Of a DNA stretch of 10,590 bases, positions 3,768 through 3,940 are shown piece after piece. This DNA comes from a virus (lineage: Duplodnaviria > Heunggongvirae > Uroviricota > Caudoviricetes). The DNA lies in IMG/VR virus record IMGVR_UViG_2617270966_000006, positions 1-10,590 of that record, one strand, 5' to 3'. Under the pieces are notes generated by a model that was given only the letters and a program-made list of their open reading frames with translations, made no database searches and was not told the origin of the DNA. Position 1 is the stretch's first letter, and the number at the start of each line of letters is the position of its first letter. Both the position numbers and the translations under genes were made by a program.

Positions 3768-3872
3768 CATTCAGCACTTATGCGTTACAGCACCGTTTAA
3801 AATTAGTGATCAAACTCATAAATTTTCGCTAATGACATTTCGTGTTATTTGTTGTATCAATTAAATAAATCA

Positions 3873-3897
3873 AATCGATCGTTTTTGTCGATCGATT
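3873..3897. promoter_or_regulatory. GATC-containing inverted repeat upstream of com; candidate Dam-methylation-sensitive operator
   Basis: aatcgatcg (3873-3881), spacer tttttgt, cgatcgatt (3889-3897): a perfect 9-bp inverted repeat with a GATC in each arm (3877-3880 and 3890-3893). A third GATC lies at 3808-3811. By analogy, the Mu mom promoter is controlled through three upstream GATC sites. Confidence 0.4.
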
Positions 3898-3940
3898 GAG
3901 TGATAAAGATATCAACAACAAAGCAGGAGGTTATGCGGCC

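Follow-up and report, generated by a model that had tools for sequence, protein, structure and literature searches.

A probable Dam-methylation-sensitive OxyR operator upstream of com-mom in a Mu-like prophage

Genes at the com-mom locus

The window (the whole 10,590-nucleotide stretch of DNA analysed here) is the right end of a Mu-like prophage that is inserted in gene J of a lambdoid prophage. The Mu-like prophage ends at ~4960, within the lambdoid J gene, and the J C-terminal domains and lom (6721-7320) come next. The ORF that precedes lom, at 4825-6651 (608 aa), is a chimera that starts in Mu-like DNA and has the J C-terminal domains as its remainder. Other genes in the window are a tail-fibre gene with DUF6645 and SASA domains (531-2585), a DUF826 gene (2969-3223), and an unannotated ORF on the minus strand (3391-3684). 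A full-length prophage of the window type (L164) carries a RefSeq 'tRNA-OTHER' feature at 18559-18638, on the minus strand, among its head genes.

com (3941-4141, plus strand) encodes a zinc-ribbon translational activator of mom (Zn_ribbon_Com, PF10122, E=7.5e-13). mom (4095-4832, plus strand) has a GTG start and encodes a DNA adenine modification enzyme (PF25680, E=7.8e-78), as is also annotated in RefSeq for an identical locus. The two genes have the architecture of a com-mom operon, the 3' end of com overlapping the start of mom at 4095-4141. The Shine-Dalgarno sequence of com, AGGAGG (3925-3930, plus strand), is kept in every variant of the window type. The mom frame is open across all of com (3898-4095), back to a stop at 3895-3897, and has an in-frame ATG at 3933, two nt past the Shine-Dalgarno sequence; Mu has a stop 3 nt before the mom start.

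DNA similarity of the window to Mu itself is limited to mom and the end of com, at ~72%. The block 3846-4094, which comprises com and the region upstream of it, is present with an intact com in 232 of 5426 complete E. coli genomes. These copies are mostly ~94% identical, and the genomes that carry them include O157:H7, O111 and O103 strains.

GATC sites and the inverted repeat upstream of com

The com-upstream intergenic region is 256 bp long and contains three GATCs, at 3808-3811, 3877-3880 and 3890-3893. The second and third lie in a perfect 9-bp inverted repeat, AATCGATCG (3873-3881)-N7-CGATCGATT (3889-3897), which ends 44 nt before com. An earlier, sequence-only reading of this DNA had pointed out three GATCs (3808, 3877, 3890) and a perfect 9-bp palindrome (3873-3897) directly upstream of com, and these observations are confirmed.

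GATC is rarer than expected in the window (18 found vs 36.9 expected), and such depletion is a known property of prophages (PMC4659465; PMC6602927). GATC-free stretches of 2.7 kb (1096-3807) and 1.45 kb (3894-5343) lie beside the cluster. When the 18 sites are placed at random, three fall within 82 bp in 12% of trials, and some gap of 13 bp or less occurs in 32% of trials. The sequence-only reading had proposed local GATC enrichment as a check, but the counts and simulations show that the trio in the window is not significant alone (P ~0.12), so the enrichment test is unable to carry the claim.

Perfect inverted repeats of at least 9 bp number three in the window, against 0.45 expected. The one upstream of com is partly automatic, since six of the nine bases of each arm are the self-complementary CGATCG and two direct copies of this hexamer suffice to form it; the real added symmetry is AAT/ATT alone. 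CGATCG-N5-9-CGATCG has one occurrence in the 41.7-kb related locus L003 and is found in 0 of 100 shuffles. The other two repeats in the window are at 3281-3309 and 7347-7368. The latter may be a terminator, because it is G+C-rich with a 4-nt loop and directly follows lom. Upon sequence comparison with relatives, it is the GATC pair, not the trio, that is clearly non-random. Support for a regulatory switch thus comes from comparison across sequences, the clustering within the window being weak.

A predicted OxyR operator at 3847-3892

Half-sites were scored out of 10 against the OxyR consensus ATAGnTnnnAnCTAT. The predicted distal half-site, HS1 (ATTTGTTGTATCAAT, 3847-3861), matches at 7/10 and is without a GATC. 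The predicted proximal half-site, HS2 (ATCGTTTTTGTCGAT, 3878-3892), also matches at 7/10 and has a GATC at each end. An A/T-rich spacer of 16 nt, TAAATAAATCAAATCG (3862-3877), separates the two, as placed by anchored comparison with the CHARACTERISED sites of Mu mom, agn43 and P22 gtr. The Dam site at the left corner of HS2 (3877-3880) is the counterpart of Mu mom GATC site 2, and the one at its right corner (3890-3893) is the counterpart of site 3. The perfect inverted repeat (3873-3897) surrounds HS2, and its AAT/ATT flanks are kept across 24 distinct GATC-N9-GATC contexts. In form, HS2 matches OxyR(A) and OxyR(C) of P22 gtr and HS2 of agn43.

Both half-sites match moderately, the DNA around them is A/T-rich, and HS2 has G in place of A at position 10. 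The pair that starts at 3847 and 3878 is the sole pair in the whole 10.6-kb window in which both half-sites reach at least 7/10 at a spacer of 15-18. The left edge of HS1 coincides with the start (3846) of the block common to related prophages. An N7 (oxidised-form) register at 3856-3870 gives the best 37-mer of the window (13/20), yet it has no N7 peak across lineages. The N16 register was adopted because the spacer scan described below is flat at N7 and sharp at N16. An extra OxyR-like half-site, AAAGATATCAACAAC at 3905-3919 (7/10), overlaps the -10 candidates of com. Its distance from HS2 is 12 nt, not N16/17, and that from an alternative register starting at 3874 is 16 nt; the spacer scan gives no downstream half-site peak across lineages.

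OxyR binds as a dimer of dimers. The palindrome had alternatively been read as the operator of a dimeric repressor, and this would be a one-dimer view of the same site, since the palindrome corresponds to one predicted OxyR-dimer half-site; the alternative is therefore no true rival to an OxyR operator.

The GATC at 3808-3811 is an orphan, 39 bp upstream of HS1, and is judged to be outside the switch. At -133 from the com ATG, it is present in the window's own variant only, with a near-equivalent at -140 in L040, and it lies beyond the block shared with related prophages and the 94% variants, which starts at 3846. The possibilities that it is a third regulatory site or belongs to a gtr-like third half-site were rejected, there being no in-register half-site (at most 5/10 in the corner registers) and no conservation. 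Since 3808 is outside the predicted OxyR site and unconserved, the window element would have two regulatory GATCs, not three. Mu mom and agn43 have three GATCs and the window has two within the predicted OxyR site, but three are not universal in the class, as gtr OxyR(BC) has two, both in one half-site.

Comparison with Mu mom, agn43 and P22 gtr

At Mu mom, OxyR (MomR) binds a region with three GATC sites in its unmethylated state. Control of Mu Pmom by Dam and OxyR is established (PMC3378877; PMC2909390). The Mu element has the same genomic position as that of the window, in that both immediately precede com-mom at the right end of a Mu-type genome, and it reads GATC-N14-GATC-N9-GATC, then GATT, then the C box TTATGCCCCAATAA. 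The N9 pair and its flanks are kept in the window, the Mu sequence being AATCGATCG..N7..aGATCGATT (AATCGATCG...GATCGATT), and the spacer to the distal half-site is 16 nt in both. The GATC pair has the same 13-bp spacing in the window, at sites 2/3 of Mu mom, at sites 2/3 of agn43 and in each P22 gtr pair. The right end of the distal half-site carries a third GATC in Mu and none in the window. The C-activator box and the T6 run that separate the OxyR site of Mu from its -10 are both absent from the window. The proximal GATC is 78 nt from the com ATG in Mu and 51 nt in the window, i.e. ~27 closer. With the Mu start site placed at L001:697, as derived from the -58..+20 fragment (PMC3378877) and an oligonucleotide (PMC4461284), the Mu OxyR half-sites span about -99 to -54 and precede the C box, whereas the window site is predicted to lie over the core promoter.

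The sequence-only reading had proposed Mu-like Dam/OxyR gating of the com/mom pair. At the level of sequence, this holds for the two palindromic GATCs, in view of their 13-bp spacing, their Mu-like flanks, the 21/23 match to agn43 and the presence of HS1; it does not extend to 3808. The likeness to Mu also fails in the promoter layout, in which the C-activator box is absent and the distance to com is ~27 bp shorter.

agn43 (flu) of E. coli K-12 shares a 23-bp core with the window that is identical at 21 positions (ATCGATCGTTTTTGTCGATCGAT in the window, ATCGATCGTTTATATCGATCGAT in agn43). It has two half-sites with GATC-bearing ends, and its single OxyR site represses, competing with Dam. The agn43 OxyR site lies downstream of the transcription start. 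agn43 is a host gene with three GATCs, a 17-nt spacer and demonstrated phase variation; the window element has two GATCs and a 16-nt spacer.

In P22 gtr, OxyR(A) and OxyR(C) are single OxyR dimer half-sites, each with two GATCs at a 13-bp spacing. OxyR(A), AATTGATCG-N7-CGATCAATT, is also a perfect 9-bp palindrome with a 7-nt loop, and it is one base per arm off the window sequence. OxyR binds the AB and BC half-site pairs, and methylation abolishes binding in gel-shift, also at the BC site with its GATCs confined to a single half-site (Broadbent et al. 2010, PMC2909390). The gtr start site is 33 bp downstream of GATC4, and the same authors tie half-site spacing of this kind to the reduced form of OxyR (PMC2909390). 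In OxyR(BC), the GATCs are in the promoter-proximal half-site only, the -35 is overlapped, and GATC3/GATC4 are at -46/-33. gtr differs from the window in its 17-nt spacer and in its three half-sites with four GATCs, through which OxyR can take up either an activating (AB) or a repressing (BC) position. No upstream A-type (gtr-like) site was found in the window, which has two half-sites only, with a spacer of 16 nt.

By sequence, the window element is closest in layout to P22 gtr OxyR(BC). It has the two half-sites of the Dam-sensitive OxyR operators, in which the spacer is 16-17 nt or 7 nt (N16 in the window), with GATCs at ATAG/CTAT half-site ends as in that class. On this comparison, it is a compact version of the known Dam-sensitive OxyR switch and not a new kind.

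Conservation among mom loci

The mom loci compared comprise 19 from a set with one genome per species and 80 from IMG/VR, and com was located in 85 of them. At least two GATCs are present in 52 of the 57 distinct com-upstream regions, a count that is not fully independent, as the lineages compared are related. The distance between neighbouring GATCs in these 57 regions is 13 bp in 35 cases, 18 bp in 34 and 31 bp in four, with five others, and the sequence between the GATCs varies widely. Among the 24 distinct GATC-N9-GATC contexts, the OxyR-consensus positions T6, A10 and C12 are found in 17, 16 and 16, respectively.

A blind spacer scan, in which the consensus was scored at each spacer of 3-24 nt on both sides of the GATC pair, gives one sharp peak, 16 nt upstream, with a mean of 5.58/10 vs a background of ~2.7. 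After thinning to 20 lineages, the N16 peak has a mean of 5.15, which is reached in 0 of 5000 shuffles (null maximum 4.55).

The 13-, 18- and 31-bp spacings are all reproduced if GATCs can lie at any of the four half-site ends. Mu and agn43 bear GATCs at three of these ends, L005 and L050 at a different three, L062 at the two inner ones, and the window at both ends of the proximal half-site alone. The Mu-type layout accordingly has spacings of 18 and 13, with the proximal GATC 78 nt from the com ATG. The window-type layout has the 13-bp spacing only and a distance of 51-57 nt (51 nt in the window itself), and the L062-type layout has the 18-bp spacing only and a distance of ~80 nt. In L005 and L050, the spacings are 31 and 13 and the distance is 54 nt. 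The remaining layout is that of five regions with no GATC, and the two of these with named hosts are from marine gammaproteobacteria.

The block 3846-3897 is almost invariant among window-type variants, and the next 12-15 bp, from the palindrome to ATCA, vary freely. The short layout with an intact GATC pair is also found in distant lineages (Edwardsiella L005, and L048-L050). Some mom loci of Dam-positive enterics are without any GATC cluster, so Dam/OxyR control is not obligatory for mom.

The promoter of com

HS2 is followed by 48 nt up to the com ATG, and these hold the Shine-Dalgarno sequence. In Mu Pmom, a C box separates the OxyR site from a poor -35, the promoter spacer is 19 bp long, and there is a T6 run. 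The window does not share this organisation; no C-activator dyad box (TTAT-N6-ATAA) occurs between 3893 and 3940. The full prophage of the window type (L164) encodes one Mor-family activator. The box TCC(C)GCAAAnCCnGCC, which is common to the regions upstream of lys and the protease gene in L164, is absent upstream of com.

Two putative -10 elements can be proposed, both on the plus strand. TGaTAAAGA (3901-3909) is a candidate extended -10 with the same offset from HS2 as the strong -10s of short-layout relatives, whose hexamers lie 8-10 nt after HS2 (L048 TATACT, L050 TATAGT, L005 TGaTAGATT), but the E. coli variants of 94% identity conserve it poorly. The alternative candidate, TATCAA (3910-3915), is better conserved among window-type variants, all of which have [TC]ATCA[AT]. 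With TATCAA as the -10, the GATC positions would match those of gtr OxyR(BC), at about -46 and -33. Neither candidate is convincing, and there is no evident -35. A sigma-70 consensus scan of the window calls no plus-strand promoter at com, which suggests that the com promoter is weak; its predicted start would be at about 3916-3923. Either -10 candidate places HS2 over the -35 and spacer region. Since the site is ~27 bp closer to com than that of Mu, it probably overlaps the core promoter, as in P22 gtr.

Proposed mechanism and alternatives

The sequence at 3847-3892 is probably a Dam-methylation-sensitive operator for the host LysR-type regulator OxyR, placed before com-mom of the Mu-like prophage. 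One OxyR dimer would bind 3847-3861 and another 3878-3892, the core of the palindrome, and the 16-nt spacer would suit the extended geometry of reduced OxyR. When both GATCs (3877 and 3890) are Dam-methylated, OxyR would be kept off and the weak com-mom promoter would be free to fire. When they are unmethylated, an OxyR tetramer across 3847-3892 may occlude the -35 region and silence com-mom. The unmethylated state would be that of a dam- host, or possibly of newly replicated DNA that is captured first by OxyR. The predicted site ends ~10-17 bp before the -10 candidates with no C box between, which suggests that OxyR would exclude RNA polymerase directly. The predicted site would lie at about -76 to -31, where OxyR also sits at promoters that it activates, so position alone does not fix the direction of regulation. 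The gtr precedent argues for repression over activation by analogy. Among the methylome papers searched, none reports unmethylated GATCs at com of Mu-like prophages.

The perfect 9-bp dyad symmetry could instead reflect an operator of a phage-encoded dimeric regulator, such as a Mor/C-family late activator or another repressor, the GATCs being incidental. The prophage type does encode one Mor-family activator, the com promoter seems too weak to fire unaided, and the C site of Mu is immediately adjacent to GATC site 3. This explanation is nonetheless unlikely, because the same core is found in agn43 (21/23), in P22 gtr and beside unrelated phage genes that have no Mu-type activator in common, and because the lineages keep the GATCs and the OxyR-consensus positions and not the loop. 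The box shared by lys and the protease gene is quite different and is absent upstream of com, and the pattern occurs once in the L003 locus, where a late activator should have several sites. A further proposal is that the element arose by chance or is a relic without function, i.e. a Mu-type remnant after deletion of the C box. The weak within-window statistics, the loss of one of the three Mu GATCs and the degenerate look of the promoter would fit this. A relic would, however, hardly keep 3846-3897 near-invariant beside 12-15 bp that vary freely, or retain the short layout with an intact pair in lineages as distant as Edwardsiella L005 and L048-L050, and the block occurs with an intact com in those 232 E. 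coli genomes; the proposal is very unlikely.

Methylation may also act directly, without OxyR, by altering RNA polymerase binding or by recruiting SeqA, as at IS10 and further promoters sensitive to Dam. Both GATCs would be within the core promoter under either -10 candidate, and an OxyR-independent effect of methylation on the gtr promoter, possibly via GATC4, has been described (Broadbent et al., PMC2909390). As the sole explanation this is improbable, since it leaves unexplained both the GATC-free half-site conserved 16 nt upstream and the other conserved consensus positions that lie outside the GATCs; such an effect could well act alongside OxyR. There is hardly any likelihood that the inverted repeat acts as an intrinsic terminator, or as an RNA hairpin, on minus-strand transcription leaving the com region. 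A consensus scan does call a terminator-like site there (3897-3873), with TGATTTATTT after it, a fold of -11.6 kcal/mol (z = -3.3) is predicted for the minus-strand RNA, and a divergent leftward promoter, momP2, is known in Mu. But no minus-strand gene lies upstream of the repeat or ends at it, com and mom being on the plus strand, and the stem comes largely from the self-complementary CGATCG, with G-C pairs at four of nine positions. Relatives keep the GATCs and their spacing and not the stem, as seen in the mismatched Mu arm and the many GATCA/TGATC arms, and the T-rich tail is the A/T-rich OxyR spacer.

Possible significance

The control of Mu mom by Dam and OxyR is a textbook case of epigenetic regulation, and the present locus shows how such a control region is constructed and how it varies. 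In a common E. coli prophage lineage, it appears in a pared-down form, with two GATCs over the putative promoter and no recognisable activator box. Should the predicted operator work, STEC lysogens would express a DNA hypermodification enzyme according to the methylation state of the host, and its expression could differ between cells. The practical value is modest: the locus offers a prediction that can be tested and a simple sequence rule by which phage genomes can be searched for such switches.

The lack of a late-activator box together with an OxyR site predicted over the core promoter makes it conceivable that com-mom in this prophage lineage is uncoupled from the lytic cascade and forms an agn43-like ON/OFF epigenetic switch in lysogens. 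This idea is speculative and more doubtful than not by a wide measure. If true, a subpopulation of lysogens would have Mom-modified (methylcarbamoyl-adenine) DNA, in a lineage that is present in ~4% of complete E. coli genomes, and their sensitivity to restriction would be phase-variable. Sister prophages in which com precedes a C5-cytosine methylase would then have C5-methylated DNA.

Related modules and leaders

The Stx1a phage LC727895 has a Mu-like insert (L002:6110-7316) in which the same OxyR/Dam block and com precede a gene for a C5-cytosine DNA methylase (PF00145, E=2e-42) in place of mom. This order suggests that com and the switch form a module that is able to drive another DNA-modification enzyme.

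In mom loci without the GATC cluster, conserved leaders that are G+C-rich and structured-looking take its place. These are found in L012-L015 and L018 (about 1250-1500) and upstream of com in L009-L011, L102 and L103, an example being CCACAGTG..CACTGTGAACCA..AAGGCT. L012-L015 and L018 are also without com, and the mom start there seems to be TTG. An Rfam search of the window and of the GATC-less relatives gave nothing relevant.

In IMG/VR, the Mu/agn43-type module GATC-N14-GATC-N9-GATC also occurs beside genes other than mom, at L115:13135-13157, L122:605-627, L149:1007-1029 and L127:11445-11467. The neighbours of the module in such cases include a tail-fibre gene, a GT2 glycosyltransferase gene, and a divergent gene pair for a D12 Dam-like methylase and a GT25 LPS glycosyltransferase. 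Exact matches to ATCGATCG-N7-CGATCGAT in IMG/VR number 58, and 29 of these are linked to com.
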